Positions 1,549-60,762 of a stretch of 64,000 nucleotides of DNA are shown in pieces. The first letter of the stretch is position 1. Each line of letters begins with the position of its first letter. The DNA is from Patescibacteria group bacterium (GTDB lineage Bacteria > Patescibacteriota > Microgenomatia > Levybacterales > UBA12049). Made by a program: the position numbers and the translations under genes. The stretch covers positions 1,000-64,999 of the forward strand of contig JAMCZC010000002.1 in the NCBI GenBank assembly GCA_023485865.1. The letters are read 5' to 3'. The notes under the pieces were generated by a model, which had not been told where the DNA came from, made no database searches, and worked only from the letters and a program-made list of their open reading frames with translations.

Positions 1549-1572
1549 GCCCTGCCCCTATAGATTTCCGAT

Positions 1573-1959: not shown

Positions 1960-1996
1960 AAATCTTTAATCAATAATCAGTAATCTTTAAATTTAC

Positions 1997-3382
1997 TTAC
2001 ACAGTAAATTTGAATCCGCGGCCTTTTACCGTTTGGATATGGTTTGGGGTATTGGGGTCGTTTTCTATTTTTTTTCTAAGCCTGAAAATAAGCTGGTCAA
2101 GGGCCTGGTTGGTAACTCCTGCAGTTGACTGCATATTTTCCCAAACTGCATTTATAATTTCTTCTCTTTCAATTATTTTTCCGGCATTTACGATAAAAAA
2201 TTTTAAGAGCTTAAATTCAGACGACGTAAGCTTATCCGAAATAACTAAATTCCCCTTTTTAACCTCATTGGAATTTTGGTCAAAAACAATCTTTTCATTT
2301 TCCGCCGAAAGCTTATTTTTTTCTAAAGCATAGTCTTTTAAAAGCGGAATCGTTAATTTGTTTTTGTCGATTAAACCAACGTTTTCAAGATAAGAAATGT
2401 CCTGATTGGCAAAATTTAAAAGCGTTAATAAGTTTTGTTCGAAAGGGTTTAGGCAGTTCCAAATGCCAAAAAGAGCGCTTCTTACGGGTTTTTGTTTAAG
2501 AAAAAACTCGCCCAGCTCCGAGCTAGACGCTAATGGTTGATTTTTGATTATTGATTTTTGATTATTGATTGTTAGAATTGCCTCCAAACAATGCCTGGTT
2601 AAATTTCCATGTCCTCCGGTTAAGGAAAGAACTTTCCCAAGCGTTTTCTTATCTATTTTTTTGCCTGTTACCTTTTCAAGATATGCAATTCTAAAATCAA
2701 GACCCGGTTTATCTAAAATAGGCAGGTACACAATTTTTCCTGCCATAAATTCGTAAAAATCTCCAAAAAATATAGGTTCAAAAATATCCTCCAGAGGTCT
2801 GGTTGCAGAAAAAACAACGGAAAAGCGGTATTTTGCCCTGTTTCTTAAAACTCTTAAGTTAGCGAAAAAATCAGCGGTTAAAGCGGGAACATATTCTTCG
2901 AACCTGTCTAAAAGGAAAACAATCGCAAGCTCTTTTTCTATGGCCAAAAAATCAATTGCCCTTTTTAGCCCCTGAAATAAAATCAACTCATCATTTAATT
3001 CGATGCTCTCTCTAAAAATTTTATTAACCGCGTCGTATTCATTTTCCATTTTTCTGCCTCTTAAAGAATCTAAAAGCCCTAGGAATATAAATTTAGTTGC
3101 GTCAAAAAGCGGTTTTTTTCTTATTTCCGAAAAATTTAAAAGCACAAAATGAAACCATTTTTGGTTTTCACCTAAATGTTTTAAGCGCACATTTCGGTTA
3201 TAAGCCAAGAGCCCTAAAAGGTTAGATCTTCCTATTCCGGGGACGCCAATTATTTGGCAGGAATTGCCCTCTTTAACAAAAGACAGAATTTTTTCAATCT
3301 CAGGAAATCTCGTATCTTCCGGATACAAAGATTCAAAATGAGAGGAATCGATTGTTAAATTGTTAAATTGTTTCATCTTCAT
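1997..3382 (-). CDS. Transcriptional regulator: N-terminal P-loop ATPase domain fused to C-terminal OmpR/PhoB-type winged-helix DNA-binding domain
   Basis: 461 aa. Walker-A-like GVPGIGRSNLLGLL near the N-terminus (Arg in place of Lys). The C-terminal ~100 aa has the OmpR trans_reg_C signature (FKLLKFFIVNAGKIIEREEIINAVWE...QALDQLIFRLRKKIE...IQTVKGRGFKFTV). Contains an in-frame 15-nt-period tandem repeat at 2536..2571. Confidence 0.55.
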   Translation of the reverse strand: MKMKQFNNLTIDSSHFESLYPEDTRFPEIEKILSFVKEGNSCQIIGVPGIGRSNLLGLLAYNRNVRLKHLGENQKWFHFVLLNFSEIRKKPLFDATKFIFLGLLDSLRGRKMENEYDAVNKIFRESIELNDELILFQGLKRAIDFLAIEKELAIVFLLDRFEEYVPALTADFFANLRVLRNRAKYRFSVVFSATRPLEDIFEPIFFGDFYEFMAGKIVYLPILDKPGLDFRIAYLEKVTGKKIDKKTLGKVLSLTGGHGNLTRHCLEAILTINNQKSIIKNQPLASSSELGEFFLKQKPVRSALFGIWNCLNPFEQNLLTLLNFANQDISYLENVGLIDKNKLTIPLLKDYALEKNKLSAENEKIVFDQNSNEVKKGNLVISDKLTSSEFKLLKFFIVNAGKIIEREEIINAVWENMQSTAGVTNQALDQLIFRLRKKIENDPNTPNHIQTVKGRGFKFTV

Positions 3383-3424: not shown

Positions 3425-3796
3425 TCAAATATTATTCCTTTTCCCTTTTAAAGTCAGGACGCTCGATCCGAATATTTTGGAAATTTCATCAAGTTCTGCC
3501 AAAATTGAATCTGCTTCCTCTTTCTCACCGTTACCTGTATCTCGCAATATCAAAACCCAAACCTTGCTTTCATTTGCCGACTTTAGAGAATGATGGAAAT
3601 AGTTCGTATAATCTTTCTTTGAACTTGCAGACTGGCCTTCTATGTAATTACCTAAAATACTTGTCCCGCTTCTTATTAATTGATCTCCGACAATTCTAGT
3701 TGTTTGGGACTTTTTACAATTTTCAACAAATTTAATAATCCTTAAAATAAGGCTATATAAACGTCTTTTAAATTCTCTTTCCCTATTATCTTTCAT
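3425..3796 (-). CDS. four-helix-bundle protein (TIGR02436-like), second copy
   Basis: 123 aa helical protein with the same family pattern (IVGDQLIRSGTSILGNYIEGQSASSKKDYTNYFHHSLKSANESKVWVLIL). It flanks the regulator on the other side. Confidence 0.5.
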   Translation of the reverse strand: MKDNREREFKRRLYSLILRIIKFVENCKKSQTTRIVGDQLIRSGTSILGNYIEGQSASSKKDYTNYFHHSLKSANESKVWVLILRDTGNGEKEEADSILAELDEISKIFGSSVLTLKGKRNNI

Positions 3797-3962
3797 ATTT
3801 AAAATTTAATATTTTATTTAAGTTTTGATATGTATTTTTTATATTTTATATTTAATCTTTTAATTCTCTTCCGCCTTTTGAATTGCTCTGTGGAACTATT
3901 GTAATTTTTTTGTTAGCTAAATATCAAGTTTTTTGTTTGCTTTGGGAATAGAATGACGGCAT

Positions 3963-9428: not shown

Positions 9429-9642
9429 AAACTATACGCTAGACGCTAATTGCTAAACGCTAAATATAGTTTGTCCTATTTTCTTATGGATGTCAACCCC
9501 GTTAAAACTCTGGTTATAAACTTGAATTTAATATGGGGATTGAAAATAGTCAGTTGAGCTTTGAACTAACAAAAGAAACAAAGTTTTAACGGGGTAAGGT
9601 TTGTTAAAAAACATAAATTGAAGTAAAATACCCTTAGGATAT

Positions 9643-9808: not shown

Positions 9809-10237
9809 ATGAAGTTTCAATTTTCAGCGGGCGGAGTAGTTTATAAGAAAAAAAACGGCGAGACTTTTATTTTGGTTGCCCAGCATTCCCAACATCACGG
9901 CTGGGTTTTCCCAAAAGGATTAATCGGCGATCATGTTGAAAACGAAGATAAAAACGAAACCGCCTTAAGGGAAGTTGAGGAAGAAACCGGAGTCCGTGGT
10001 AAAATTATAAAAACATTAAGCCCTACCGACTATTGGTATGTTTTTGAAGGCGAAAAAATAAAGAAAACAGTTTATTATTATTTAATGACTGTTGTTTCCG
10101 AAGACATAACGAAACATGACAAAGAAATGGAAAACGTAGAATGGCTATCTGCCGAAAAGGTGGAACAAAGATTAACCTATCCATCTGAAAAAAGAGTCTG
10201 GCAGGAAGCCTTAAAAATTTTAAATTTGAAATTTTAA
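9809..10237 (+). CDS. NUDIX hydrolase
   Basis: 142 aa. Nudix box GDHVENEDKNETALREVEEETGV (GX5EX7REUXEEXGU). Starts 2 nt after the tRNA-Ser. Confidence 0.8.
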   Translation: MKFQFSAGGVVYKKKNGETFILVAQHSQHHGWVFPKGLIGDHVENEDKNETALREVEEETGVRGKIIKTLSPTDYWYVFEGEKIKKTVYYYLMTVVSEDITKHDKEMENVEWLSAEKVEQRLTYPSEKRVWQEALKILNLKF

Positions 10238-10253
10238 ATTTGAAATTGAACTT

Positions 10254-13685: not shown

Positions 13686-13792
13686 TTTTATTAGCAACTA
13701 GCAAATAGCATTTAGCAACTAGTTAAGAAATAATATAAACTAATTTACAACAACTAGCAATTAGTTAACTAAAGGCTAGTGGCTAGAAGCTG

Positions 13793-14500
13793 ATGGCTAA
13801 TTTTCTTGATTTTATTTTTCCCAAAAAATGCGTTTCTTGCAAAAAATTAGGCAGTTATCTTTGCGAAAATTGTTTTGCCTATCTTTCTTTTGATGCAAAT
13901 AGTCTTTGTCTTGTTTGTGATAAGCCTTCTTACAATGGCCTAACTCATCCAATCTGTCGAAAAAAATATACGATTGACGGCTGTTTTTCCGCGCTTTCCT
14001 ATAATAAAACTGCGCAAAAACTGATTTATAATTTTAAATACAAGCCTTACTTAACAGATTTAAAAACTGTTCTGGCTGATTTATTTTACGAAAGCTTAAT
14101 TCAAAACGAAAATTTCAACAAAGAATTGGAAAAAGGAGAATGGGCTTTTGTCCCGATTCCGCTTTTTGCCTCAAAATTTCGTAAAAGAGGCTATAACCAA
14201 GCGGAAATTCTGGCAAAAGAATTATCTAAAAACTTTAATTCTAAAACTATGAATATTCTCAAAAGAACAAGAGATACAAAAACGCAAGTAGGACTTTCAA
14301 ATATAGACAGGAAACTTAACATCAAAGATGCATTCGAATTAAATTCATCATTTATCATTAATCATTTATCACTGAAAAATGCAAACATTTTTCTTGTTGA
14401 TGATGTGGTTACAACCGGCGCGACTCTTTTGGAAGCTGCAAAAATCCTTAAAAAAGCAGGGGCAAAAAGAGTGATTGGCCTAACTCTTGCGAGAGATTGA
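13793..14500 (+). CDS. comFC: ComFC-like phosphoribosyltransferase (competence protein F family)
   Basis: 235 aa. N-terminal double CxxC zinc-finger (CVSCKKLGSYLCENC...CLVCDKP). C-terminal PRTase motif IFLVDDVVTTGATLLEAAKIL. Confidence 0.75.
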   Translation: MANFLDFIFPKKCVSCKKLGSYLCENCFAYLSFDANSLCLVCDKPSYNGLTHPICRKKYTIDGCFSALSYNKTAQKLIYNFKYKPYLTDLKTVLADLFYESLIQNENFNKELEKGEWAFVPIPLFASKFRKRGYNQAEILAKELSKNFNSKTMNILKRTRDTKTQVGLSNIDRKLNIKDAFELNSSFIINHLSLKNANIFLVDDVVTTGATLLEAAKILKKAGAKRVIGLTLARD

Positions 14501-21687: not shown

Positions 21688-21787
21688 AAGCTAGAGGTTA
21701 GAATTTGAGGTTAGATAGTAGAAGTTCGAAAATCTAATTTCTAATTTCAAGATCCAACTTCCAGTTTCCATTGTCCAGTATCAAACT

Positions 21788-28111: not shown

Positions 28112-28114
28112 AAT

Positions 28115-28140
28115 AATGATAAATGATTAAGGATTAATGA
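28115..28140 (+). repeat. 26-nt conserved motif AATGATAAATGATTAAGGATTAATGA (copy 1 of 3; contains SD-ATG of pgk)
   Basis: Identical 26-mer at 60730..60755; close variant (24/26) at 41272..41297. Confidence 0.6.
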
Positions 28141-29177
28141 TTAGATTAAAAAAAATACAAGAAGCCGATGTTAAGAATAAAACGGTTCTTTTAAGAGCGG
28201 ATTTGGATATTCCTCTCGCGGGGGGGAAGATTGCAGACGATTTTCGTTTAATTACTTCTCTTGAAACTATCAATTATTTTTTAAAGCAAACAAAGACAAT
28301 AGTTATTATCGGTCACCTCGGACGTCCGGAAGAAGGAGATAAAAGTTTAAGTTTGAAAGTTGTGGCGAAGTGGTACGCCAAAAATTTCAAATTTCAAATT
28401 TCAAATTTCAAATTAAAGGATTTTACTGGATGGAAAATTGGAGAAAAGTTAATTCTTTTGGAAAATCTTAGATTCTTTCAGGGCGAAGAAAAAAATGATC
28501 AGGGTTTTTCTAAACAATTAGCCTCACTTGCCGATATTTATGTTAACGACGCTTTTGCTTCTTCGCATAGAGCGCATGCTTCAATAGTCAGTGTCACTAA
28601 ATATTTGCCTTCCTTTGCAGGATTAAGGCTTGAAAAAGAAGTCGAAGAACTTTCAAAAATTCTAAATGGCCCCAAACGGCCGCTGGTGGTGATAATAGGC
28701 GGGGCAAAAATCGAGACAAAACTTCCCCTGGTTGAAAAAATGCACCACTTTGCCGACTATGTTTTGGTGGGCGGGGAAATTGCGGAAAATGATAAAGTTC
28801 TTCTTAAAGTTCAACATGAAAAAATTACAGGCAGAAAATCAATTCTTCTGGTGGCCGATTCGAACGAAGATTTAAACGATATTACTTCCAAATCGGCTGA
28901 AAACTTTGTTCAGATAATTCAAAATGCAAAAACAATTGTTTGGAATGGTCCGATGGGTGTTACGGAAGAAAAAGAAAATCAAAACGGAACAAATATTTTG
29001 GCAGAAGGCATAGTCCAAACATCCGCGGATACAATAGTTGGGGGAGGAGACACACTGGCATTTTTAAAAGAAAAAAATCTGCTTGATAAATTTTCTTTTG
29101 TTTCAACAGGAGGCGGCGCAATGCTGGAATTTTTGGCAGATGAAAATCTCCCGGGCCTGGAAGTGTTGGATATTTAA
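28137..29177 (+). CDS. pgk: Phosphoglycerate kinase
   Basis: VLLRADLDIP..., GHLGRPEEG, and a C-terminal GGGDT-type motif (VGGGDTLAF). Carries an in-frame 7-nt-period repeat (28382..28413) encoding KNFKFQISNFKL. The 3' end (29115..29177) is duplicated downstream at 29767..29832. Confidence 0.9.
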   Translation: MIRLKKIQEADVKNKTVLLRADLDIPLAGGKIADDFRLITSLETINYFLKQTKTIVIIGHLGRPEEGDKSLSLKVVAKWYAKNFKFQISNFKLKDFTGWKIGEKLILLENLRFFQGEEKNDQGFSKQLASLADIYVNDAFASSHRAHASIVSVTKYLPSFAGLRLEKEVEELSKILNGPKRPLVVIIGGAKIETKLPLVEKMHHFADYVLVGGEIAENDKVLLKVQHEKITGRKSILLVADSNEDLNDITSKSAENFVQIIQNAKTIVWNGPMGVTEEKENQNGTNILAEGIVQTSADTIVGGGDTLAFLKEKNLLDKFSFVSTGGGAMLEFLADENLPGLEVLDI

Positions 29178-29197: not shown

Positions 29198-29226
29198 GAC
29201 AATTTTGTAACTATTGTATATACTTT
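29198..29226 (+). promoter_or_regulatory. Consensus sigma70 promoter (TTGACA-17-TATACT) with flanking inverted repeat, for the relB-yafQ cassette
   Basis: TTGACAattttgtaactattgtaTATACT. An inverted repeat TTGTAAC...GTTACA brackets the -10 and is a candidate autoregulatory operator. Only ~8 nt from the -10 to the ATG (near-leaderless). Confidence 0.5.
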
Positions 29227-29234
29227 GGTTACAT

Positions 29235-29510
29235 ATGAGAACTGTAATTTATATTAAAACAGACAACGAAATAAAAAAGAACGCCCAGAAACTAGCCCTA
29301 GAGCTAGGGCTTAATCTAAGTGACGTAATTAATGCATCTCTTAGAAATTTTATAAGAACTCGAGAGGTCTATTTTTCTTCTATTCCTAAAATGACTTTAG
29401 AGCTTGAGAGAATTCTCGGGCCGATAGATGAAGACATAAAAAGAGGTAGGAATCTTTCCCGACAACTTTCTGATTCTTCTGAAGTAAATGATTACCTCAA
29501 TTCCTTATGA
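29235..29510 (+). CDS. RelB/DinJ-family antitoxin
   Basis: MRTVIYIKTDNEIKKNAQKLALELGLNLSDVINASLRNFI is the RelB/DinJ RHH pattern. 4-nt ATGA overlap with the downstream toxin. Confidence 0.7.
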   Translation: MRTVIYIKTDNEIKKNAQKLALELGLNLSDVINASLRNFIRTREVYFSSIPKMTLELERILGPIDEDIKRGRNLSRQLSDSSEVNDYLNSL

Positions 29511-29764
29511 TAGTTCGCGTTCATAAAAACTTTGAAAAACAATATAAGAAATTAAAAAAAACAGAGAAAGATAAATTTAAAGAGAGAATTAATATTTTTA
29601 TTACAGATGAATTCAATCCAATACTTAATAATCACCCGCTTAGAGGTAAATATTTAGGTTATAGAAGTATTAATGTGACAGGAGATCTTCGGGCAATATA
29701 TAAAAGAGAAGAAAATCTAACAATTTTTGTTGCAGTTAATTCGCACAGCAACCTATATCGATAA
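29507..29764 (+). CDS. RelE/YafQ-family mRNA-interferase toxin
   Basis: 85 aa, basic. Matches the YafQ/RelE pattern (…FKERINIFITDEF…LRGKYLGYRSINVTGDLRAIY…IFVAVNSHSNLY). Confidence 0.7.
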   Translation: MIVRVHKNFEKQYKKLKKTEKDKFKERINIFITDEFNPILNNHPLRGKYLGYRSINVTGDLRAIYKREENLTIFVAVNSHSNLYR

Positions 29765-33549: not shown

Positions 33550-33605
33550 ATTTAAAGTTAAAATTCAAAAGTCAAAGGTCAAAAGTTAATAATTTTGAAT
33601 TTTTT

Positions 33606-37180: not shown

Positions 37181-37184
37181 AATC

Positions 37185-37330
37185 TTTCGGGTGAAGAGGG
37201 TGGAATTCCCTCGCTGTGCCGCAACTGTATAGTCAGAACCCCGTTCTGCAAAGCAGAATTTGCAGAGAAAAATCTTCCGAGCAGAAGTGCATTTTTATTT
37301 TACACAACTTCTCGGAATGGGGAGTTTTTT
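37185..37330 (+). promoter_or_regulatory. Candidate cobalamin riboswitch (B12 element) in 5' leader of gene 37332..38444
   Basis: Contains GAGGG-UGGAAUU-CCCUC (the GGUGnnAAnUCC hairpin of B12 elements). This is followed by GCUGUGCCGCAACUGUA, matching the conserved GCUGnnCCGCAACnGUAA junction, then AGUCAGAACCCCG resembling the B12-box AGYCMGGAGACCKGCC. Called from memory of the consensus; not verified by a covariance model. Confidence 0.4.
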
Positions 37331-37331
37331 T

Positions 37332-38444
37332 ATGGCCGAAGCGCAATCTTACAATTACCAAAGACCAAGGGAGCTTGCCGATTCTAAAAATTTTGCCGTT
37401 GAGTACGCACCGATTGTTAACAGAAGAGAAATAGAAGACGATATCATTGCTTATCTTGGTGAATTCAGATTTGGATTAAAGAAATCCGATTATCGTTTGG
37501 TATTTTCTCGCACAGACGATGAGGGTTGGAGACTTCGTGACCCCCACAGGCTGGAATCAATGGCAATTAAAGCGCAAAGGGCGATAACAGAAAGAAGACA
37601 ACGGGGGGAAATTACGCCTAGGGAAACAGCGGAGGCTAGTGGTCTTAATTTTTTAGATCAACAGTTGCAAACTGCAAGCGAAGAGGGTTCAATCGTTTGG
37701 GCCAGTCCGCCGGGAGCAGAAAGCCAAGGCTACGGAGATTATGGATTCTTCTACATCGGACAAATTGGGAGAATGATTGCCAACAGAAGAGAAGTTGCAA
37801 TGACGGCAATCAGAGTTAACGGAAGAAGCCTTCCTGATTATGAAAAAGCTTTTAAAAGGTTGTCCGGAATTGACTTCAAATTTAAAAACCCGGAAGATTT
37901 TTTAAGAATGCCGGTGATTTTAAATGACAGTTTGCCTAAAGAGCTTATTGACAGTACTCTGGGTACTATTTTTCCAAATCAAGAAAATGTAAGCGACAAT
38001 TCGGTTGAATTTCAGTTAGCTATTGCAAGAATAAAAAATAGAATAGGAGAATTCATAGATTATTGTGCTTTTGCAACTCCGACCGAAAAAGCTAAAGCTT
38101 TTCATGCCTTAGAGAATTATTTTCTTGAGGTTAGAGAAGAGATTAGATCCGGAAAAACAGTTGTTTATCAAAAGAAACGGGAGTTCAAACAGTTGGTTGC
38201 TGACTATGGTAGCAGAAAAACTCCTGAAGTTAAAGGAAGCTGTCCTATCTCAAGCCAGAACCCTTTAAATAGCAGTAACATTTTTAATGGTGGATTTGAA
38301 GCTTTGAACAACCTAATAAACCAGGAATGGTTTACTTGTCCCAAATGTCATTACAAAGCAGACGGGCCGGTTGGAAATACCTGTCCAGGTTGTGGTTTGA
38401 CAAAGGAGGCTTATGCGCAAGAATCAGGGCAAATCTGCGAGTGA
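37332..38444 (+). CDS. hypothetical protein with C-terminal Zn-ribbon (CPKCHYK...CPGCG)
   Basis: ATG at 37332 with GGGGAG SD 9 nt upstream. The ORF-track N-terminal extension would overlap the structured leader. No family recognised. Confidence 0.5.
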   Translation: MAEAQSYNYQRPRELADSKNFAVEYAPIVNRREIEDDIIAYLGEFRFGLKKSDYRLVFSRTDDEGWRLRDPHRLESMAIKAQRAITERRQRGEITPRETAEASGLNFLDQQLQTASEEGSIVWASPPGAESQGYGDYGFFYIGQIGRMIANRREVAMTAIRVNGRSLPDYEKAFKRLSGIDFKFKNPEDFLRMPVILNDSLPKELIDSTLGTIFPNQENVSDNSVEFQLAIARIKNRIGEFIDYCAFATPTEKAKAFHALENYFLEVREEIRSGKTVVYQKKREFKQLVADYGSRKTPEVKGSCPISSQNPLNSSNIFNGGFEALNNLINQEWFTCPKCHYKADGPVGNTCPGCGLTKEAYAQESGQICE

Positions 38445-38899: not shown

Positions 38900-41272
38900 A
38901 TGTTTTTACGAACTTTTTCTCTGGACAATTTGATGTCTCTTTTTATTTCCTTATTGATTGGTCTTTTTATTGCGGCCATTTTAGTTTTGCTTTTGGTTTT
39001 GCTGTCTTATGTTTTTGTTCTTTGGTATAGAAATAGAGACAGAGAAAGGCAGTCTTTAGAATCGACTCTTTTACAAGTTACTCTTCCCAGGGACAACGAG
39101 ATAAAAATCGATGCGGCAGAGCAGCTTTTTTCAAGTTTTGGCTCAATGAGAAAAGGCGGAAGGCTGTCTTTTTTAAAGCTTCAGCCCCATTTGTCTTTTG
39201 AAATTGTCGGAATGCCGGGAGATATCCGTTTTTACGTTAACACCCCTAATAAATTTAAAGATTTAGTTGAAAAACAAATAAACGGAGCATATCCTGATGC
39301 GGAGATTAAGGTAGTCGATGAAAAATCCCAGAAGCCGGGTTATGTCTTAGGCAACGAATATAATATTTTTGCCGACAATGCCAAGGTTGCTTTTGCAAGC
39401 CTTAGACTCAAAAGTTCAAACTACGCACCGATAAAAGTATTTAAGGATTTGCCAACAGACCCCCTGTCTTCAATTACTTCAGTTCTGGCAAAAATGACTT
39501 TGGGGGAGGGAGCGGCAATTCAGGTCTTAATCAGTCCTGCCGATTCAAAATGGAAAAAAATGGGAAGAAAGTACATTGCCAGAACAAAAAAGAACGAGTC
39601 AAATCCCGAGACGGCAAAGTATTCGGCAGATCCAAAAGAGCTTGAGGGAATAGAAAATAAAATAGGCAAACCCGGGTTTAATACGGTTGTAAGAATTGTT
39701 GTTTCTTCAAGCTCCGTGGAGGCTGCTTCTGCGCATCTTGGTAATATAACCAGTGCCTTTTCCCAATTTGACGGGGCAAATTCATTCACTAAAAACAAGC
39801 ATCGGTTTAAAGGAATGTTTATGACAGATTTTATCTATAGATTTTTGCCGATGAGAGGGCAAACGTCGGTTTTAACCAGCGAAGAATTGGCAACAATTTT
39901 TCATTTCCCAAATAAAAGTGTTTCAACGCCTCATATCTTTTGGATTTCCTCCAAAAGAGCACCTGCTCCGGCTCAAATTCCGGACAGCGGTTTATACCTT
40001 GGAATGAGTACTTTTAGAGGCTTGAGCAGGCCTGTTTATATGCAAAGAGATGACAGAAGAAGGCATATGTATGTAATTGGAAAAACCGGTGTCGGAAAAT
40101 CGGAATTTCTAAAAGATATGATTTTGCAGGATATTAAAAACGGGGAAGGGGTTTGTTTTATAGACCCTCACGACACAATAGACAAACTGTTGCCGCTTAT
40201 TCCGCCCGAGCGAGCCGAAGACGTAATCCTTTTTGACCCTTCGGATACCGACAGGCCGATGGGTTTGAATATGCTTGAGGCAAATACCGAATCGGAAAAA
40301 CATTACGTTGTCTCATCAATTGTCGGTCTTATGTACAAACTTTACGATCCCAATAAAACAGGTATTATCGGGCCTCGTTTTGAACACGCAATAAGAAACG
40401 CAATGTTAACCGTAATGTATGAAAAAGGCAGTACTTTTGTCGAGGTTGTAAGAGCTTTGACAGACGCAACTTTTGTCCAGGAGCTTTTGCCAAAAGTTCA
40501 GGACCCTATTATCAGACGTTATTGGACAGACCAGATTGCCCAGACTTCAGACTTTCACAAATCCGAAGTTTTAGATTACATTGTTTCCAAATTCGGCCGT
40601 TTTGTTACCAATAAAATGATGAGAAACATTATCGGCCAATCTTCCTCGGCTTTTGATTTTAGAAAAGTTATGGATGAGGGAAAAATTCTTTTAGTTTCTC
40701 TTTCTAAAGGGAAAATAGGAGAGGAAAATGCCAGCTTTTTAGGCTTAATTCTGGTCCCTAAAATTTTGGTGGCCGCAATGAGCAGGCAAGATATCCCTGA
40801 AGAACAAAGACGGGATTTCTTTCTGTATGTTGACGAGTTCCAAAACTTCGCCACTCCCGATTTTGCCCAAATATTGTCGGAGGCAAGAAAATACAGGCTT
40901 GATTTAATTGTTGCCAATCAGTTTATCGGGCAAATGGACGAAGAGGTTAAGAACGCAATTTTTGGCAATGTCGGAACGCTTGTTTCTTTTAGGGTAGGAG
41001 TAACGGATGCAAATTATCTTGCGCATGAATTCCAGCCGACTTTTACGGAAGCCGATTTAATCAATGTAGACGTCTACAATACTTATGTTAAAACAATAGT
41101 GCATAATGAACCGGTTACGCCTTTTTCTATGGATTTAACCCGTGATATGAGTAAAGAAAAAGATCTTGCCAATCCAAGAGTGGCAGAGTTAATAAGAGAG
41201 CTTTCAAGGCTAAAATTCGGTAAAGATGTCCGAACGATAGAAGGAGAAATTGCCCAAAGAGCCAGGCTCTAA
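38900..41272 (+). CDS. Type-IV-secretion coupling-protein-like ATPase (VirD4/TraG/TraD-VirB4 superfamily) with N-terminal TM anchor
   Basis: 790 aa. N-terminal TM helix. Walker A GKTGVGKSEF. Walker B FFLYVDEFQNF, followed by RKYRLDLIVANQFIGQ...IFGNVGTLVSFRV, the pattern seen after the DEF box in TraG/VirD4-type T4CPs. Subfamily cannot be settled by eye. Confidence 0.55.
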   Translation: MFLRTFSLDNLMSLFISLLIGLFIAAILVLLLVLLSYVFVLWYRNRDRERQSLESTLLQVTLPRDNEIKIDAAEQLFSSFGSMRKGGRLSFLKLQPHLSFEIVGMPGDIRFYVNTPNKFKDLVEKQINGAYPDAEIKVVDEKSQKPGYVLGNEYNIFADNAKVAFASLRLKSSNYAPIKVFKDLPTDPLSSITSVLAKMTLGEGAAIQVLISPADSKWKKMGRKYIARTKKNESNPETAKYSADPKELEGIENKIGKPGFNTVVRIVVSSSSVEAASAHLGNITSAFSQFDGANSFTKNKHRFKGMFMTDFIYRFLPMRGQTSVLTSEELATIFHFPNKSVSTPHIFWISSKRAPAPAQIPDSGLYLGMSTFRGLSRPVYMQRDDRRRHMYVIGKTGVGKSEFLKDMILQDIKNGEGVCFIDPHDTIDKLLPLIPPERAEDVILFDPSDTDRPMGLNMLEANTESEKHYVVSSIVGLMYKLYDPNKTGIIGPRFEHAIRNAMLTVMYEKGSTFVEVVRALTDATFVQELLPKVQDPIIRRYWTDQIAQTSDFHKSEVLDYIVSKFGRFVTNKMMRNIIGQSSSAFDFRKVMDEGKILLVSLSKGKIGEENASFLGLILVPKILVAAMSRQDIPEEQRRDFFLYVDEFQNFATPDFAQILSEARKYRLDLIVANQFIGQMDEEVKNAIFGNVGTLVSFRVGVTDANYLAHEFQPTFTEADLINVDVYNTYVKTIVHNEPVTPFSMDLTRDMSKEKDLANPRVAELIRELSRLKFGKDVRTIEGEIAQRARL

Positions 41273-41297
41273 AATGATTAATGATTAAGGATTAAAG
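41272..41297 (+). repeat. Variant copy of the 26-nt AATGAT(A/T)AATGATTAAGGATTAA(T/A)GA motif
   Basis: AATGATTAATGATTAAGGATTAAAGA immediately after the ATPase stop codon; 24/26 identical to the other two copies. Confidence 0.5.
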
Positions 41298-41358
41298 AAA
41301 TTTAAATTCCTCGATTATTCTTGCCTAATTAAGAGCCATTTGTTAAAATCGTTTTGTT

Positions 41359-44340: not shown

Positions 44341-44371
44341 TGAAGTGAGTTTTTATTGTATAATTGGGCGT

Positions 44372-45724
44372 ATGGATTTTAAAAATTCCAGATCTGCCTT
44401 TGGCGGAAAGAAAATTGCAGTGATAGGGGAAGGTCTGGAGGGCATATCGAGCGCTAAGTATTTAAAAAAGCACGGCGCTGATGTTAATATCTTAGACCAA
44501 AAGCAAGGAAAGGACTACCTAGAAAATTTAGATAAATACGATTTAATTGTCAGAAGCCCGGGTGTCAAGATTTCTGATTTAGAAAAGTATGTTCCTAAAG
44601 GGAAAATTACTTCTCAAACAAGAATTTTTATGGAGCTTTGTCCTTGTAAAATAATCGGAGTAACGGGAACAAAAGGAAAAGGAACCACATCCTCTTTAAT
44701 CTACGAAATGCTTAAAAAACAATCCTCCTTCGCCAAGGCTTCAGGGGATAGGGGCTTTGATGTGTATTTAGGTGGTAATATTGGTAAGCCTCCATTAGAG
44801 TTTTTGGATAAATTAAATGTTCAATCGATAGTTGTCCTGGAGTTATCTAGTTTTCAGCTTTTAGACCTTACCCAAAGTCCTCATATTGCCGTAATGCTTA
44901 TGACAACCAGCGAACATCTTGATTACCATCAAGATGTTGATGAGTATGTTGATGCGAAACGAAACATTTTAAAATTTCAAACCGAAAATGACTTTGCTAT
45001 CGTTAACAGAGATTATCCTGCCAGTAACGAATCGGATATTCATACAAACGGTAAAGTATTTTATGTAAGCACAGAAAGAAATGGATACGAGGGATGTTCT
45101 GTGAAAAAGAATGCAGTTTTTCTAAAACTAAACGGAAAAGAAGAGAGGGTTATTGACGCTTCGCAAATTCTTTTGCCCGGGAAACACAATCTGGAAAATG
45201 TCTGCGCAGCTTCTATGGCTGCATATTTGGCTGGGGTTTCGGTTCAAAATATTGCCTATGTTCTAAAAACTTTTAAAGGCCTTGAGCATAGGCTGGAACT
45301 TGTTGCGGAAGTTAACGGCGTTAAATATTATGATGATTCTTTTTCAACAATTCCAGAGACAACAATAGCAGCTATAAATGCTTTTAAAAATCCGGAGATT
45401 TTAATTCTTGGAGGATCAAGCAAAAGCAGTAATTTTAAAGAATTAGGAGAGGTTATTGCAAAAGCGGAAAATATAAAAGCAATAATAGGCATTGGGGTTG
45501 AATGGGGAAAAATAAAATCAAAAATCAAAAATCAAAAATCAAAAATCCTTTTAGTTGAAGGAGCAGATAGTATGGAAAAAATAGTCAAAGCAGCTTCAAA
45601 AATCGCCTTGCCGGGAGACTTAGTTTTGTTAACACCTGCCTGCGCCTCTTTTGATATGTTTAAAAACTATAAAGACAGAGGAAGCCAGTTTAAGTCGGAA
45701 GTTTTAAAACTTAAAACTCCCTAA
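44372..45724 (+). CDS. murD: UDP-N-acetylmuramoylalanine--D-glutamate ligase
   Basis: KKIAVIGEGLEGISSAKYL, IIGVTGTKGKGTTSSLIYEML (Mur ligase P-loop). In-frame 7-nt repeat at 45512..45548 encoding KIKSKIKNQKSKI. Start set at MDFKNS; the track start is an upstream GTG. Confidence 0.85.
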   Translation: MDFKNSRSAFGGKKIAVIGEGLEGISSAKYLKKHGADVNILDQKQGKDYLENLDKYDLIVRSPGVKISDLEKYVPKGKITSQTRIFMELCPCKIIGVTGTKGKGTTSSLIYEMLKKQSSFAKASGDRGFDVYLGGNIGKPPLEFLDKLNVQSIVVLELSSFQLLDLTQSPHIAVMLMTTSEHLDYHQDVDEYVDAKRNILKFQTENDFAIVNRDYPASNESDIHTNGKVFYVSTERNGYEGCSVKKNAVFLKLNGKEERVIDASQILLPGKHNLENVCAASMAAYLAGVSVQNIAYVLKTFKGLEHRLELVAEVNGVKYYDDSFSTIPETTIAAINAFKNPEILILGGSSKSSNFKELGEVIAKAENIKAIIGIGVEWGKIKSKIKNQKSKILLVEGADSMEKIVKAASKIALPGDLVLLTPACASFDMFKNYKDRGSQFKSEVLKLKTP

Positions 45725-45846
45725 ATTTTCAATTTCAAATTTTTAATTTTTAATGAATTTCCAATGACCCAATTTTAAAATTAAAGAATTTAAATATATT
45801 TAATCTGTGTTTTTAATATTTAATTTTTGATATTTAATATTGAATT

Positions 45847-47082
45847 ATGAGGCCGACTTTCAAAATAATCAAAAAAGACAAGAAATCAAAAGCCAGAGCT
45901 GGTATTATCAAAACCCCCCATGGTGAGATCGAAACGCCGATTTTTATTCCGGTCGGGACCCAAGGGACGGTAAAAGCAGTTTCACCGCGTGACCTAAAAG
46001 AAATGGGGGCGCAAATAGTTTTGGCAAATACCTATCATTTACACTTAAGGCCGGGAGAAGACCTTATTCAAAAGTTCGGAGGTTTGGCAAAGTTCATGGG
46101 GTGGGAAGACGGTCCCCACTTCGCCAAGACTTCGAGGGGCAGGCCGACGATGACAGACTCCGGAGGTTTTCAGGTTTTTTCTTTAGGGGTAGGAAAGATG
46201 GGCGGAGGGGTGAAATTCCTCAAAGAGGAAATATCAAATTTAAAATATCAAATTTCAAATATAGAAGAGGCAAGGCCAAGACTTAATAAAATTACTGAAG
46301 AAGGGGTGACTTTTCAGTCGCATATTGACGGGTCAAGCCATAAACTGACTCCGGAAAGCTCAATCAAAATTCAGGAAAAGCTCGGAGCCGATTTAATTGT
46401 TGCTTTTGACGATTTGGAGTCGCCCAAATACTCTTTTGAAGAAACAAAAAAATCACTCGAACTTACAAACAGATGGGAGTTGCGTTCGAAAAAAGCTCAC
46501 AAAAGGAAAGATCAATTGCTGTACGGCGTAACTCACGGAGGGCCGTTTAGAGACTTAAGAGAACTTTCCGCCAAATTTGTTGACGAGAACTTTGACGCTA
46601 TTGGTATGGGCGGAGCACACTTGTCAAAGAAAAATTTATATGAGGTAGTTAGTTGGACAACGGATATTGTTTCGGATGAAAAGCCGAGGCATCTTTTGGG
46701 AATTGGAGAAGTTGATGATATTTTTGAAATTATTCAAAGGGGCGTTGATACTTTTGACTGCGTAATTCCAACAAGAATTGGAAGAACTGGATTTTTCTTT
46801 GTTTTCCCGCCCAAAGGCACAGTCAAAAACCGCTTTAGAACAGACATAGACAAGCCAAATTTTAGAACCGACCCAAAACCTTTGGATTTAAATTGCAAAT
46901 GTTATGCTTGTCAGAATTTCAGTAGAGCTTACATCCATCACTTATTTCGAAGCAAGGAACTATTGTCGTATCATCTTTTAAGCCTTCACAACGTCCGTTT
47001 TCTCATTAACCTTACAAAACAAATTAGGAAAGCGATTTTAGAAGATAAGTTTCAAAACCTAAAAAAAGACTGGATTGGTTGA
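45847..47082 (+). CDS. tgt: Queuine tRNA-ribosyltransferase (tRNA-guanine transglycosylase)
   Basis: TPIFIPVGTQGTVK, DSGGFQVFSLG. Zn site CKCYACQNFSRAYIHHLF. Carries an in-frame repeat-derived insertion (46229..46263, KYQISNIEE). The 3' ~90 nt is duplicated downstream at 48709..48796. Confidence 0.85.
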   Translation: MRPTFKIIKKDKKSKARAGIIKTPHGEIETPIFIPVGTQGTVKAVSPRDLKEMGAQIVLANTYHLHLRPGEDLIQKFGGLAKFMGWEDGPHFAKTSRGRPTMTDSGGFQVFSLGVGKMGGGVKFLKEEISNLKYQISNIEEARPRLNKITEEGVTFQSHIDGSSHKLTPESSIKIQEKLGADLIVAFDDLESPKYSFEETKKSLELTNRWELRSKKAHKRKDQLLYGVTHGGPFRDLRELSAKFVDENFDAIGMGGAHLSKKNLYEVVSWTTDIVSDEKPRHLLGIGEVDDIFEIIQRGVDTFDCVIPTRIGRTGFFFVFPPKGTVKNRFRTDIDKPNFRTDPKPLDLNCKCYACQNFSRAYIHHLFRSKELLSYHLLSLHNVRFLINLTKQIRKAILEDKFQNLKKDWIG

Positions 47083-48798: not shown

Positions 48799-49797
48799 AT
48801 GAAAAGAGTTTTAACAGGAGATACGCCAACCGGCAAACTTCATTTAGGCCATTATGTCGGGACACTCGAAAACAGAATAAAACTGCAAAACGAATATGAA
48901 ATGTTTATTCTTTTTGCAGACACACATGCCTTAACTACGCTAAGTTCCACTCCGAAAATGATTGCGGAATATACAAAAGAAGTTCTTTTGGACAATTTAT
49001 CTGTCGGTTTAGACCCTAAAAGTGTCACTTTTTTTGTTGAATCGGCAATTCCGGAAATATATGAACTAGCTGCAATTTTTAGCATGTACGTTTCCCATAA
49101 TAGGGCATTAAGAAATCCCACAATAAAAGATGAGATTAAATCAAAAGGACTTGGAGATCAATATAGTTTAGGCTTCATAAATTATCCGATTTTCCAGGCT
49201 GCGGATATTCTCTGCGTTAAAGGTCAAGTTGTCCCGGTCGGAAGAGATCAGGAAGCACATCTTGAGCAAACAAGAGAAATCGCAAGAGAATTGAATAAGC
49301 TTACTAATTCAGATATTTTCCCCGAGCCGCAGGCTTTAGCCGGAAGAGTAGGGAAGTTAATTGGAACCGACGGCAATCCTAAGATGGGAAAAAGCCTTAA
49401 TAACACAATTTATCTTTCCGATTCAAAGGATGAAGTTGAAAAAAGGGTTATGAACATGTATACCGACCCAAAAAGAATTCATCCGAGCGATCCGGGAACA
49501 GTGGAAGGGAACCCCGTTTTTATTTATCTCGATACCTTTGCGGCAGAAAAGGACAAAAGACAAATTGAAGAATACAAAAATAAATATAAAAAAGGAGAAG
49601 TAGGGGATGTAGAAGTTAAGAAGTTTTTAACAGGTATCTTGAACGAATTTCTGGAGCCGATAAGACAAAGGCGTGCAGAATATGAAAAAAAACCCGATCT
49701 TTTGCAATCAATTTTGGACAAAGGAAACGTAAGGGTCAGGGAAGATGCAGCAAGGACATTAAATGAATTAAAGCAAAAAATGGGATTGGACCTCTAA
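48799..49797 (+). CDS. trpS: Tryptophan--tRNA ligase
   Basis: Class I HIGH-type motif TGDTPTGKLHLGHYVG and KMSKS-type KMGKSLNN. Confidence 0.85.
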   Translation: MKRVLTGDTPTGKLHLGHYVGTLENRIKLQNEYEMFILFADTHALTTLSSTPKMIAEYTKEVLLDNLSVGLDPKSVTFFVESAIPEIYELAAIFSMYVSHNRALRNPTIKDEIKSKGLGDQYSLGFINYPIFQAADILCVKGQVVPVGRDQEAHLEQTREIARELNKLTNSDIFPEPQALAGRVGKLIGTDGNPKMGKSLNNTIYLSDSKDEVEKRVMNMYTDPKRIHPSDPGTVEGNPVFIYLDTFAAEKDKRQIEEYKNKYKKGEVGDVEVKKFLTGILNEFLEPIRQRRAEYEKKPDLLQSILDKGNVRVREDAARTLNELKQKMGLDL

Positions 49798-52408: not shown

Positions 52409-52447
52409 CGATTAGCGTATAGCGTTTAGTTCTTGTATAATCAACCC

Positions 52448-53374
52448 ATGCAGAAACTGGTTATAATTGACGGCAATGCGATTGTGCACCGTGCCTTCCA
52501 CGCTTTACCTTCGATGAATACTCAAGACGGCCAGTTAACAAACGCAGTATATGGGTTTTTTGCCATGCTGTTAAAGCTGTTAAATGACCTTAAGCCTCAA
52601 TATCTGATTGTTTGTTTTGACCGCCCCAAACCTACTTTTAGGAAGCAAATGTATGTCGGGTATCAGGCAAAAAGACCCAAGATGTCGGATGATTTAGCTC
52701 CGCAAATAGACCTTTTGCATAAAGTTTTGGAAAGAGCAAAAATTGAGCATTTTGAAATAGACGGATATGAGGCCGACGATATTATCGGAACAATTGCCAC
52801 CCAATCCGCTGCAAAAAACCTTCAGACAATTATTGTTTCGGGGGATAGGGATATGCTTCAGCTTGTAAATCATAAAGTTCTTGTTCTGGCGCCAATTTCG
52901 GGAATTACTAAAATGGCACTTTTTGACGACGAAAAAGTAAAAGAAAAATACGGTTTAAAAGCCTCTCAATTCATAGACTACAAAGCTTTGGTGGGTGATA
53001 GTTCGGATAATTACCCGGGAGTTTCGGGAATCGGGCCAAAAACAGCAGCAGAGCTTATTAATAAATATCAAACTTTTGAAAATCTCTACGCGCATATTTC
53101 GGAACTGCCTCAAAATTTAAGTTCAAAACTGGCTACGGATGCGGAACAGGCGGCTCTTGCCAAAAAACTGGCAACAATCGCCCTTGACGCGCCTATTAAA
53201 ATAAATTTGGAAAAAGCAAAGGTAGGAAAGATTGATAAACTTGGACTCTTGGAGGCTTTTAAAGAGCTTGGCTTCAAAACCTTAATAGGAAGAGTATTAA
53301 ATTCAGATTCGAGTAAAAATATGAATAAGCCTAAAGAGAAGAAGAGCAATGATGAACAGTTGGGGCTTTTGTAA
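52448..53374 (+). CDS. 5'-3' exonuclease (Pol I N-terminal/FEN-like domain only)
   Basis: MQKLVIIDGNAIVHRAFHALP, plus downstream acidic clusters and a helix-hairpin-helix region. No polymerase domain. TATAAT sits 7 nt upstream of the ATG, so the gene is probably leaderless. Confidence 0.8.
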   Translation: MQKLVIIDGNAIVHRAFHALPSMNTQDGQLTNAVYGFFAMLLKLLNDLKPQYLIVCFDRPKPTFRKQMYVGYQAKRPKMSDDLAPQIDLLHKVLERAKIEHFEIDGYEADDIIGTIATQSAAKNLQTIIVSGDRDMLQLVNHKVLVLAPISGITKMALFDDEKVKEKYGLKASQFIDYKALVGDSSDNYPGVSGIGPKTAAELINKYQTFENLYAHISELPQNLSSKLATDAEQAALAKKLATIALDAPIKINLEKAKVGKIDKLGLLEAFKELGFKTLIGRVLNSDSSKNMNKPKEKKSNDEQLGLL

Positions 53375-53470
53375 ATTTCTAATTTCTAATTCTTAATTTC
53401 TAATGAAATCAAAATGCTTAAATTTAAAACATTAAAAATTGATTGAAAATTGAAAATTAATAATTGAAAA
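53375..53470. repeat. A/T-rich 7-nt tandem repeat tract (AATTTCT / TGAAAAT units), intergenic
   Basis: aaatttctaatttctaattcttaatttctaatg...attgaaaattgaaaattaataattgaaaatt. Belongs to the same repeat family seen inside CDSs at 28382, 45512, 46229, 61053 and 63254, and in intergenic DNA at 21688..21780, 45725..45846, 10206..10252, 33551..33600 and 59561..59626. Confidence 0.7.
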
Positions 53471-53474
53471 TTAT

Positions 53475-54692
53475 ATGCGAGTTGCAATTGTTCACGATTA
53501 TATAAAAGAATATGGTGGGGCAGAGAGGGTTTTGGAAAAACTCCATGAAGTTTTTCCCGACGCGCCAATCTACACAACGGTTTACTTGCCTTCGTTTTTA
53601 GGGCCTCATAAAAAAAGGTTTGAGGGGATGAATATTAAAACGTCGTTCTTGCAATTTTTTCCGTTTAAATCAAAGCTAATCAGCCCTTTTAGACTTTTGG
53701 CACAAACGGCATTCAGAAGCTTTGATTTTTCCGCATATGATGTAATAATTGTTTCCCAAACCGGTTCGTATTTTCCAAACGCGGTTAAAAAAAGAGGAGC
53801 TAAGCTTATTTGTTATTGCCATACGCCGCCAAGGTATCTTTATGGGTTTGAAACGGCAAGAGACTGGAAAAAAAATAAGCTATTTATGGTTTTGAGCATG
53901 ATTTCGATTCACTTTTTAAGAATGACAGATTTTAAATCTTCGCAAAACGTAGATTATTTTATCGCGAACTCGGAAAACGTCAGAAAAAGAATCCAGAAGT
54001 TTTATCGCAAAGACGCTGTTGTAATCTATCCGCCGGTTTCGGTGGGTGACGGTAGAGGATCGAAAATAGATGGTAGAACTTCGAAGACGGAAGATAGAAG
54101 ATTGATCCATCCTCAATCCTCAACCCTCAAAAATCTATCTTCTGCCCTCCATGATCTATCGTCTAGGGAATACTATCTGGCCGGAGGAAGGCTGGCAAGG
54201 CCCAAACACGTTGATTTAATAGTGGAGACTTTTTCAAAACTAAATCTTCCCTTAAAAATATTCGGAAAGGAATTTGCAGGGCATGGAGAAGAATTGAAAT
54301 CAAAAATCATCCATTCGACAAGCTCAGGACAAAAATCAAAAATAGAATTTCTGGGAGAAATAACGGACGAAGAAAAATATGAGCTTATGAAAAGAGCAAA
54401 AGCATTTGTTTTTGCTTCGGAAGATGAGGATTTCGGCATAACTCCGGTTGAAGCGGAAAGCTTGGGGACGCCCGTTATAGCTTTTGCATCGGGAGGAACA
54501 TTGGAAACCGTAGTTGACGGGAAAACAGGGGTATTTTTTAATAAATTATCAGTTGAGTCACTTTCAAAAGCAATAGAAAAGTTTAATAAAGCCAAGTTCA
54601 ATATTGAAGTTATTAGAAATCAGGGTAAAAAGTTTTCGGAAAGCATTTTTAAATCTAAAATAAAGGAGTTTGTAGCTTCTAAAATAAAGTAA
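53475..54692 (+). CDS. Glycosyltransferase family 4 (GT-B fold)
   Basis: MRVAIVHDYIKEYGGAERVLEKL at the N-terminus; EDFGITPVEAESLGTPVIA (EX7E-type) at the C-terminus. Unusual ~45-aa low-complexity insert (GRGSKIDGRTSKTEDRRLIHPQSSTLKNLSSALHDLSS). Confidence 0.75.
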   Translation: MRVAIVHDYIKEYGGAERVLEKLHEVFPDAPIYTTVYLPSFLGPHKKRFEGMNIKTSFLQFFPFKSKLISPFRLLAQTAFRSFDFSAYDVIIVSQTGSYFPNAVKKRGAKLICYCHTPPRYLYGFETARDWKKNKLFMVLSMISIHFLRMTDFKSSQNVDYFIANSENVRKRIQKFYRKDAVVIYPPVSVGDGRGSKIDGRTSKTEDRRLIHPQSSTLKNLSSALHDLSSREYYLAGGRLARPKHVDLIVETFSKLNLPLKIFGKEFAGHGEELKSKIIHSTSSGQKSKIEFLGEITDEEKYELMKRAKAFVFASEDEDFGITPVEAESLGTPVIAFASGGTLETVVDGKTGVFFNKLSVESLSKAIEKFNKAKFNIEVIRNQGKKFSESIFKSKIKEFVASKIK

Positions 54693-55211: not shown

Positions 55212-55338
55212 ATCTTGCTTATTATATGAGTTTTTTTCTAAAAATCAAGTTAATGATTTGGTATAATCAAAAATAAAATATATTTTCTATTTACTATGTG
55301 TATTTACTATTTAATATTTAATATTTTATATTTCAAAC

Positions 55339-59554: not shown

Positions 59555-59640
59555 GATAGAAAGTCAAAATTCAAAGGTTAAAACTCAAAAGTTTAAGTAA
59601 AAGGTCAAAAGTTTTTAATTTTGCCTTTTAACTTTTTATT

Positions 59641-60717: not shown

Positions 60718-60729
60718 AGGCCAATAATT

Positions 60730-60755: not shown

Positions 60756-60762
60756 ATAAAAT

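Follow-up and report, generated by a model that had tools for sequence, protein, structure and literature searches.

Heptanucleotide simple sequence repeats within and between the genes of a Levybacteria-like member of the Patescibacteria

We focus here on short tandem arrays of 7-nt units in a 64,000-nt stretch of DNA from a Patescibacteria group bacterium (assembly GCA_023485865.1, contig JAMCZC010000002.1, positions 1,000 to 64,999). The whole stretch is referred to as the window, and all coordinates without a locus label are those of the window. Its genes include those for PGK, MurD, TGT, an ATP-dependent DNA ligase and an EndoQ-like protein (match to PfuEndoQ, 5zb8, E=2e-40), identities that had been proposed in an earlier note made from the sequence alone and that are upheld here; the nearest named relatives of the PGK, ligase and TGT proteins are Levybacteria. 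All five genes carry tandem heptamers within their coding sequences, and further arrays lie in the spacers of the window (Table 1). The arrays are heptanucleotide simple sequence repeats (SSRs), a kind of repeat that is already known, here in a Levybacteria-like member of Patescibacteria (the candidate phyla radiation, CPR). A combined literature search found no paper linking heptamer repeats with Patescibacteria or CPR, and a 2025 survey of short tandem repeats (PMC12699852) makes no mention of heptamers or Patescibacteria.

The window was scanned for periods of 4 to 30 nt under a strict rule, by which 18 of 21 positions must equal the base one period away. Nine regions were detected at period 7, seven at period 14 and at most one at each of the other periods, and strict-rule arrays in 30 dinucleotide shuffles reached a mean of at most 0.03. 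Under a laxer rule (16 of 21 positions), the window contains 27 period-7 arrays, 10 of them in open reading frames (ORFs) and 17 in spacers or at gene edges. With 90.3% of the window coding and 9.7% non-coding, the placement of 17 of 27 arrays in the non-coding part is far from random (binomial p=2e-11), and arrays in ORFs also exceed expectation, with 11 observed against 0.12 in codon shuffles. Tandem Repeats Finder (TRF) gives period 7 at 83-100% match at all of the sites in the earlier note, so that the tracts described there are real tandem heptamers, far above shuffles, and they encode the peptides that it gave (KNFKFQISNFKL, KIKSKIKNQKSK, EISNLKYQISNI, NIKYKISNIKY and GISNSQFPISND). Some arrays are of an ABAB type, in which the match is 95-100% at period 14 and only 80-88% at period 7, a signature of duplication. 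One such array lies in a gene that had been described as a regulator with a 15-nt repeat; the protein does have an OmpR-type winged-helix C-terminal domain (Trans_reg_C), but the period is really 7/14. At least 15 different units occur in the window, each of them A/T-rich and holding no more than one or two G or C, and the coding arrays are 4-6.6 units long. Some groups of units recur, namely AAATTTC-like, AATGATT, AAAGTCA/AAAATCA and TATTTAA.

The same excess is found in other Patescibacteria. In 80 of their pgk loci (1.26 Mb), 49 period-7 arrays stand against at most 8 at any other period from 4 to 13, and in the full comparison set of related Patescibacteria loci (161 loci, 2.13 Mb, near-duplicates removed; single loci carry labels such as L081) there are 108 period-7 arrays against at most 10 at each other period from 5 to 12, with one or more in 45 of the 161 loci. 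These 108 arrays divide into 62 inside long ORFs and 46 in the 10.6% of the DNA outside them, a roughly 6-fold enrichment in non-coding DNA, and the coding arrays span 28-49 nt. The earlier proposal of an expanding, genome-specific microsatellite thus does not hold, given this excess in 45 of 161 loci and an identical pgk tract in two genomes that are only about 70% identical overall. In the passages of PMC4679880 and PMC4692102 that cite Mrazek 2007, heptanucleotides are described as the most abundant long SSR in most prokaryotic genomes, polymerase-footprint slippage is proposed as the cause of the heptamer excess, and repeats with multiple-of-three units are those expected in coding DNA. 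In these Patescibacteria loci, contrary to that expectation, the commonest in-gene repeat has a 7-nt unit: inside long ORFs, the 62 period-7 arrays compare with 1, 4 and 2 at periods 6, 9 and 12, respectively.

The arrays that are found in genes have passed a stop-codon filter. Since 7 leaves a remainder of 1 when divided by 3, each unit is read in all three frames, and a unit in an ORF therefore needs a cyclic sequence without TAA, TAG or TGA. Read on the sense strand, no coding unit contains a stop, while 12 of the 17 intergenic units have stops on both strands and are impossible in any ORF. In AT-rich DNA, the stop-free demand leaves survivors that consist essentially of an A-run, a T-run and a C, and the peptides that these encode are made of K, N, I, S, F and Q. 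That coding units look alike is thus largely an effect of this filter, though a few unit groups recur; the earlier idea of one repeat family spanning genes and spacers is right as to the recurring groups and fails for the 12 intergenic units that are barred from ORFs. Its frame arithmetic, by which only three-unit changes preserve the frame, is correct, and the coding tracts are, as it supposed, derived from repeats, being DNA-level heptamers read in three frames and not conserved enzyme peptides.

The note also had the arrays inserted into essential genes as surface loops, and this was compared with homologs and structures for six genes (PGK, MurD, ligase, TGT, EndoQ-like and GT4). In about half of them, the coding arrays take the place of tolerant segments and do not add length. 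In PGK (phosphoglycerate kinase, 346 aa), the residues of the array (82-95) correspond to an ordinary part of the N-domain in PDB PGKs, the window protein being if anything shorter, and the segment is of equal length in nearly all of 35 relatives. In the AlphaFold model of PGK (mean predicted local distance difference test score, pLDDT, 91.6), the array forms the end of a helix (74-84) and a beta-strand (88-93), with a block pLDDT of 93-96. The MurD tract is 2 aa longer than the corresponding segment of 3lk7 but aligns gaplessly with relatives (65-83% identity) that bear KIKEQITNLGS, RIKAQISSSDS or NIKAQIKSSKL at this place. The ligase tract shows no gap against 2cfm, and in homologs the linker segment is 29 or 31 aa long regardless of whether an array is present. 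In TGT, on the other hand, the tract sits in a stretch of about 31-34 aa that is missing from PDB TGTs; in relatives this loop varies from 25 to 94 aa, with 41-44 aa in array-bearing homologs against a modal 31-36 aa. The TGT structure model (mean pLDDT 50.6) is too poor for use, and the loop is therefore assigned from the PDB and homolog alignments. In the EndoQ-like protein, the array at 63253..63283 is a 14-aa insertion relative to PfuEndoQ, at a site that holds arrays of other units in L166 and L167 and no array in L168 (8 aa shorter), and the array at 62755..62775 falls within query residues 67-107, a stretch about 26 aa longer than in PfuEndoQ. The GT4 array lies in the interdomain linker, across which relatives do not align. 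Insertion is thus a fair description for TGT, EndoQ-like and GT4, where loops are longer or variable, and not for PGK, MurD and ligase, where the difference is 0 to +2 aa; the PGK array is modelled as a helix end and a strand with no added loop. The arrays mark segments in PGK, MurD, TGT, ligase and the EndoQ-like protein where nearly any K/N/I/S/F/Q-rich sequence is tolerated.

Arrays recur at the same sites in homologous proteins. A search for 10-aa stretches in which at least 9 residues agree with a translated perfect, stop-free heptamer array detected these in 43 of 120 ligase homologs (all at residues 90-109), in 20 of 120 PGK homologs (four sites) and in 5 of 120 TGT homologs (all in one loop), against 0 of 600 shuffled proteins in each case. 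At the ligase site, the 120 homologs imply at least 12 different units, including TCAAAAT, TCAAAGT, TCAAAAC, AATCTCA and AATATCA, and the arrays were confirmed in DNA for three relatives (L166, L167 and L169). At the pgk site, the unit is AAATTTC in the window, L081 and L082, TCAGAGT/TCAGAAT in L092, which is the closest relative (84% aa), and AAATTTT (L089-91), CAATTTC (L083-88) or AAAGTTC (L011) in other relatives, yet arrays with differing units all share register and total length. That every unit changes at the same column points to concerted evolution and not to independent point mutation or protein-level selection. Taken together, the alignments indicate that the coding arrays are old, nearly stable in length and concertedly evolving at permissive sites. 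Since the same protein sites carry different units at near-equal length in dozens of relatives, they provide a natural example of concerted evolution in which to study how repeats are generated and homogenized.

Identical arrays are also shared in a mosaic fashion. The window, L081 (GCA_000380825.1) and L082 (Hainich groundwater) have about 70% DNA identity overall, whereas the pgk array plus about 60 nt of downstream flank is 92-97% identical among the three; L001, which is closer overall, reaches only 48-63% there. The ligase segment 61018-61107 is likewise 93-100% identical to L172 and L170, against 40-56% to the overall closest L168 and L166. Both pgk (28105-28470) and ligase (61018-61107) are fine-scale mosaics of blocks of 75-370 nt that have sharp breakpoints and show 88-100% identity to genomes with only about 70% identity in other parts, and such mosaics would imply frequent short-patch recombination among Levybacteria-like lineages. 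L170 shares a further high-identity block with the window that is free of arrays, and for this reason ordinary short-patch recombination is the simplest reading. The identical arrays on these patches mean that copy number was kept while the flanks gained 5-7% differences.

Orthologous PGK tracts are of equal length in relatives down to 52-65% protein identity, ligase tract lengths in relatives vary by about 2 aa only and not by units, and six population contigs are identical at the orthologous tract. No length polymorphism at the window arrays was found among the relatives compared, which include no same-species strains, and no frameshifted ortholog of any window gene was found among them. A one-unit step was found in TGT of a distant Patescibacteria population. 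The intact protein of L127 (409 aa) has an in-gene (AAATTAA)-type array at 10939-10988, while in L140 (near 10917-10960) and L143 (near 3564-3610), from two other metagenomes, exactly one 7-nt unit is missing and TGT stops at residue 318, with the remainder, including the zinc motif, staying open in another frame. Slippage in coding arrays thus does happen and can disable a dispensable gene; the L140/L143 allele could be a pseudogene, a reversible switch or a case of frameshift-corrected expression.

The intergenic arrays behave differently. In the window, the Fic-to-ligase spacer measures 45 nt and is nearly filled by its array, where L168 has 1 nt and L166 has 13 nt. Upstream of Fic, a 90-nt spacer in the window corresponds to 27 nt without an array in these two relatives. 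The murD-tgt spacer, past the murD stop codon, has an array in the window, (AATTTCT)n in L095 and about 20 nt without an array in L103, L110 and L097. Intergenic arrays thus add spacer length and turn over.

We consider it likely that the arrays are heptanucleotide SSRs of the known kind that have been filtered by selection and have no demonstrated function, and we infer both slippage or misalignment as the generator and the lack of a dedicated function. DNA misalignment in a 7-nt, sometimes 14-nt, register at replication or repair would create and homogenize arrays of about 4-7 units, and selection would then sort which of them persist. Between genes, arrays would be tolerated and would lengthen otherwise minimal spacers. 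Within genes, an array would survive only if its unit is stop-free in three frames, if the frame is kept and if the peptide falls in a tolerant segment; the surviving AT-rich coding units would then be composed of an A-run, a T-run and a C and would encode a seven-residue K/N/I/S/F/Q-rich peptide. The expected outcome would be a few permissive sites per protein, long persistence and concerted unit change at fixed or nearly fixed length, with arrays passing between lineages on short patches of homologous recombination.

Several observations weigh against this account. A length difference was present for only 1 of about 22 arrays in contig pairs of at least 95% identity, and indels between contigs at least 85% identical show no excess at 7, 14 or 21 nt (three of 7 nt, from two events, compared with 10 of 8 nt and five of 9 nt); the arrays thus turn over slowly, and the step that generates them was not observed in this lineage. 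Moreover, of 5,024 substitutions in contig pairs at least 90% identical, a fraction of 0.50 match the base 7 nt away, as at other offsets. The length-neutral changes of periodicity and unit in PGK, MurD and ligase are also left unexplained by gain and loss of units, because single-unit steps are frameshifts. Furthermore, the units are not random: a few families recur, and a 19-mer with a Shine-Dalgarno-like motif is present at three spacers, where random seeding would be more diverse. Finally, the relatives were picked for sharing the array or its peptide, and this ascertainment allows no inference on arrays promoting recombination. Length-neutral copying from a neighbouring unit, through transient misalignment or intra-array conversion, would fit the fixed lengths, and the negative result for substitutions at the 7-nt offset means that such a copying process, if real, is confined to existing arrays.

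A more far-reaching proposal is that a Patescibacteria-wide, heptamer-specific and largely length-neutral process, for instance transient misalignment in a 7-nt register or conversion within arrays, overwrites tolerant coding segments and thereby makes period 7 dominant in ORFs. We regard this as possible though rather doubtful. If true, such a lineage-wide process would be a source of steady loop novelty in core enzymes and of occasional frameshift loss of dispensable genes, as in TGT of L127 compared with L140/L143.

It is also conceivable, though unlikely in our judgement, that the arrays are functional cis-elements, such as S1, cold-shock or CsrA-type binding sites that tune translation or transcription. 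Many intergenic arrays adjoin start codons; the TAATGAT/TAAGGAT array that holds the AAGGA motif and the pgk ATG recurs at three spacers (10 matches against 0.07 expected); the array upstream of pgk is kept in L082, although it is different in L081; the leader arrays of pgk and ligase are predicted to be unstructured and A/U-rich; and such a role has been proposed for TAACTGA repeats upstream of Beggiatoaceae start codons (PMC4679880). Set against these points are the number of units (at least 15 in one window and at least 12 at the single ligase site), the arrays deep inside ORFs and the orthologous spacers of close relatives, which are array-free and 1-27 nt long. Folding of eight array regions gives no structure signal, with z around 0 (-1.4 to +1.2) in seven of them, and no binding partner was identified. 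In the eighth region, 59555-59640, which alone folds better than shuffles (z=-2.9, minimum free energy -15.8 kcal/mol), the A-rich array upstream of Fic is predicted to pair with a complementary T-rich stretch that immediately precedes the start codon. A regulatory role is conceivable for the TAATGAT/TAAGGAT arrays that bear a Shine-Dalgarno-like motif upstream of pgk and ligase.

Mobility is a further alternative. Arrays and flanks could form small mobile cassettes, spreading from genome to genome and entering genes by insertion or overwriting, a view close to the cryptic mobile sequence of the earlier note, and the pgk and ligase array blocks, of about 75-110 nt and with 92-100% identity between genomes that otherwise share about 70%, could be read in this way, as could the different sequence that the overall closest relatives carry at the array block. 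The flanks that are shared, however, are homologous gene sequence and not element ends. In the window, the direct-repeat families consist of the arrays alone, with differing flanks, and terminal inverted repeats, target duplications and dispersed copies that have flanks in common are all absent. The array-free block shared with L170 means that ordinary mosaic recombination explains the pattern, and the choice of relatives that share the array introduces an ascertainment bias. We thus consider mobile cassettes very unlikely and drop the mobile-sequence idea.

Equally, the in-gene arrays could act as phase-variation switches through one-unit slippage, as in neuO of Escherichia coli K1, and the note had seen them as slippage hot spots with the potential of contingency switches. 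A unit length that is not a multiple of three is suited to this, and the distant TGT, with its intact (L127) and minus-one-unit (L140, L143) alleles and an intact downstream frame, provides the kind of variation needed. At the window loci, however, the idea finds no support: arrays of 4-6.6 units compare with 14-39 in neuO and 13-24 in hmw1A (PMC8653822, PMC8262952), the hosts include PGK, MurD and DNA ligase, for which an off state should be lethal or costly, tract length is the same or nearly so across many relatives and identical in the six population contigs, and no window gene has a frameshifted ortholog among the relatives compared. Switching at these loci is highly improbable. For annotation, comparison with relatives is needed before such tracts are taken for insertions, mobile DNA or switches; they can yield real frameshift alleles in dispensable genes.

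The last alternative, that a seven-residue structural repeat is selected in the protein and the DNA repeat is a by-product, agrees with the seven-residue period of the peptides and the well-ordered PGK segment of the model but is close to refuted, since the peptides span no more than about 1.6 periods, the DNA is perfectly periodic at 7 nt even at synonymous positions, arrays of this kind also fill non-coding spacers, and relatives have unrelated peptides of equal length at the site.

Table 1. Period-7 arrays in the window, with their units, positions and gene context
Unit	Position	Strand	Gene or spacer	Details
(AAATTTC)x4.7	28382..28414	+	pgk ORF 28137..29177	perfect (100%); residues 82-93, KNFKFQISNFKL
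(AAAATCA)x~5	45508..45547	+	murD 44345..45724	TRF 45514-45547, 4.9 copies, 100%; encodes GKIKSKIKNQKSKI
AAATATC/AAATTTA, alternating	46229..46262	+	tgt 45847..47082	period 14 95%, period 7 80%; EISNLKYQISNI
AAATATC/AAATATA, alternating	61053..61092	+	ATP-dependent DNA ligase 60763..62499	period 14 96%, period 7 84%; NIKYKISNIKY
(AATTTCC)x4.4	63253..63283	+	EndoQ-like ORF 62519..63931	83%; encodes GISNSQFPISND
(TCAGCAA)x3	62755..62775	+	EndoQ-like ORF	encodes QQSAISK
(ATCCTCA)	54103..54137	+	GT4 glycosyltransferase 53475..54692	degenerate; interdomain linker
(ATTTATC/ATTAATC)	14343..14371	+	ComF-like phosphoribosyltransferase ORF 13793..14500	
(TTGATTT/TTGATTA) on +; sense AAATCAA/TAATCAA	2537..2570	-	OmpR-type C-terminal-domain ORF 1997..3382	period 14 100%, period 7 88%
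(TAATGAT/TAAGGAT)	28112..28143		intergenic	holds Shine-Dalgarno-like AAGGA and pgk ATG
(TAATGAT/TAAGGAT)	60723..60759		intergenic	fills 45-nt Fic-to-ligase spacer
(AATGATT/AAGGATT)	41268..41298		intergenic	overlaps stop codon of ORF 38900..41272
(AAAGTCA)-type	59560..59612		intergenic	7.7 degenerate copies; 90-nt spacer upstream of Fic gene
(AAAGTCA/AAAGTTA)	33551..33594		intergenic	
(AATTTCA/AATTTTT)	45722..45758		intergenic	immediately past murD stop codon
(TTTAATA)	45810..45850		intergenic	runs into tgt start codon
(AATTTCT)	53369..53404		intergenic	overlaps stop codon of ORF 52433..53374
(ATTGAAA)	53442..53472		intergenic	upstream of GT4 gene
(TATTTAA/TATTTAC)	55297..55340		intergenic	upstream of ORF 55339..56202
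(AAATTTT/AAATTTG)	10211..10250			overlaps NUDIX ORF stop codon; period 14 100%
(AATTTCT)	21721..21748		intergenic	
(GATTTAT)	1563..1592		intergenic or gene edge	
(TAATCAA)	1956..1994		intergenic	
(TTATATT), two adjoining arrays	3786..3865		divergent spacer 3797-3962	degenerate
(CTAAACG)	9432..9464		intergenic	
(TAGCAAC)	13690..13722		intergenic	

Several of the array-bearing genes have further features of their own. The 3' end of pgk is duplicated in a 56-nt direct repeat (29115-29170 and 29767-29822, 89% identical), and between the two copies lies a pair of RelB/DinJ-type antitoxin and RelE/YafQ-type toxin genes (ORFs 29214..29510 and 29507..29764). In L081, pgk ends in sequence that matches the downstream copy, and in L089 the corresponding place also holds a YafQ toxin; from the sequence, this looks like a toxin-antitoxin cassette that inserted in the end of pgk and brought a replacement gene end with it. 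A programmed -1 frameshift at the pgk tract was considered and rejected: AAATTTC fits A AAT TTC in one register, but the fold is no better than shuffles (z=0.53), and no other + strand ORF of at least 40 aa lies between the tract and 28732. An apparently split PBP gene in L087 was likewise rejected as a repeat frameshift, since what interrupts it is a stretch of N in the scaffold. A 102-nt direct repeat (46986-47087 and 48690-48791, 76% identical) has one copy at the 3' end of tgt and the other some 1.7 kb further downstream, immediately upstream of ORF 48799..49797. Among close ligase homologs, P0137, P0202 and P0232 (916-919 aa) and L171 6796-9555 contain an intein (LAGLIDADG and intein-splicing Pfam matches), while the window ligase has none.

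Elsewhere in the window, a group I intron at 44047-44240 on the + strand (Rfam, 78.8 bits), with flanks at 44013-44046 and 44241-44285, appears to interrupt an initiator-type tRNA, the putative 5' part beginning CGCGGGG and the 3' part ending in CCCCGCAACA; ARAGORN did not call this split tRNA at 44013-44285. A tRNA-Ile with anticodon TAT is located at 41359-41432, and an AdoCbl-II riboswitch at 37171-37251 lies upstream of ORF 37260..38444.

Among known systems, neuO of the E. coli K1 prophage CUS-3 (PMC8653822) resembles the window in having a heptamer array within coding sequence that is read in three frames and yields a seven-residue repeat, with full-length protein only at a frame-keeping copy number. 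Its 14-39 copies, however, belong to a surface-modification gene carried by a phage, where they lie at the 5' end, and they switch at 1-2% over a few generations, whereas the window arrays have 4-6.6 copies in internal segments of core enzymes and keep their length in relatives. Of the properties of phase-variable repeats, the window arrays thus have an in-coding unit whose length is not a multiple of three, and they do not have long tracts, on/off alleles in the relatives compared or hosts of surface or dispensable function. The (ATCTTTC)n repeats of hmw1A/hmw2A in Haemophilus influenzae (PMC8262952) are, like arrays here, intergenic heptamers, in that case between promoter elements and gene, but with 13-24 copies and proven graded control of transcription, compared with 4-8 copies, many units and no evidence of regulation in the window.

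The TAACTGA repeats of marine Beggiatoaceae, Cyanobacteria and Bacteroidetes (PMC4679880) are closer in scale, being short arrays of 2-6 copies that lie mostly upstream of start codons, with some in ORFs in the stop-free orientation only. They consist, however, of one fixed unit genome-wide, and their in-ORF copies are found mainly at protein termini or in hypothetical proteins, whereas the window has many units and in-ORF arrays internal to conserved enzymes; the TAACTGA array itself is absent from the window (0 matches to TAACTGATAACTGA with at most two mismatches). The cyanobacterial STRR (three tandem heptanucleotides, Calothrix PCC 7601) and the GGGAATC/GGGGA(T/C)T repeats of Xanthomonas and Nostoc (PMC4692102) are tandem heptamers of spacers that differ in length and sequence when a given intergenic site is compared between related genomes, as here, but their units are G-rich or otherwise defined, some of them capable of forming G-quadruplexes, while the window units are A/T-rich and have no predicted structure. 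Finally, prokaryotic heptanucleotide long SSRs, to the extent that PMC4679880 and the citation of Mrazek 2007 in PMC4692102 describe them, are, like the arrays here, tandem 7-nt repeats in excess of chance and of neighbouring unit lengths, mostly intergenic, phylogenetically patchy and put down to polymerase slippage. In that survey, as these two papers present it, units that are multiples of three are the likeliest in coding regions, whereas here period 7 dominates even in ORFs.

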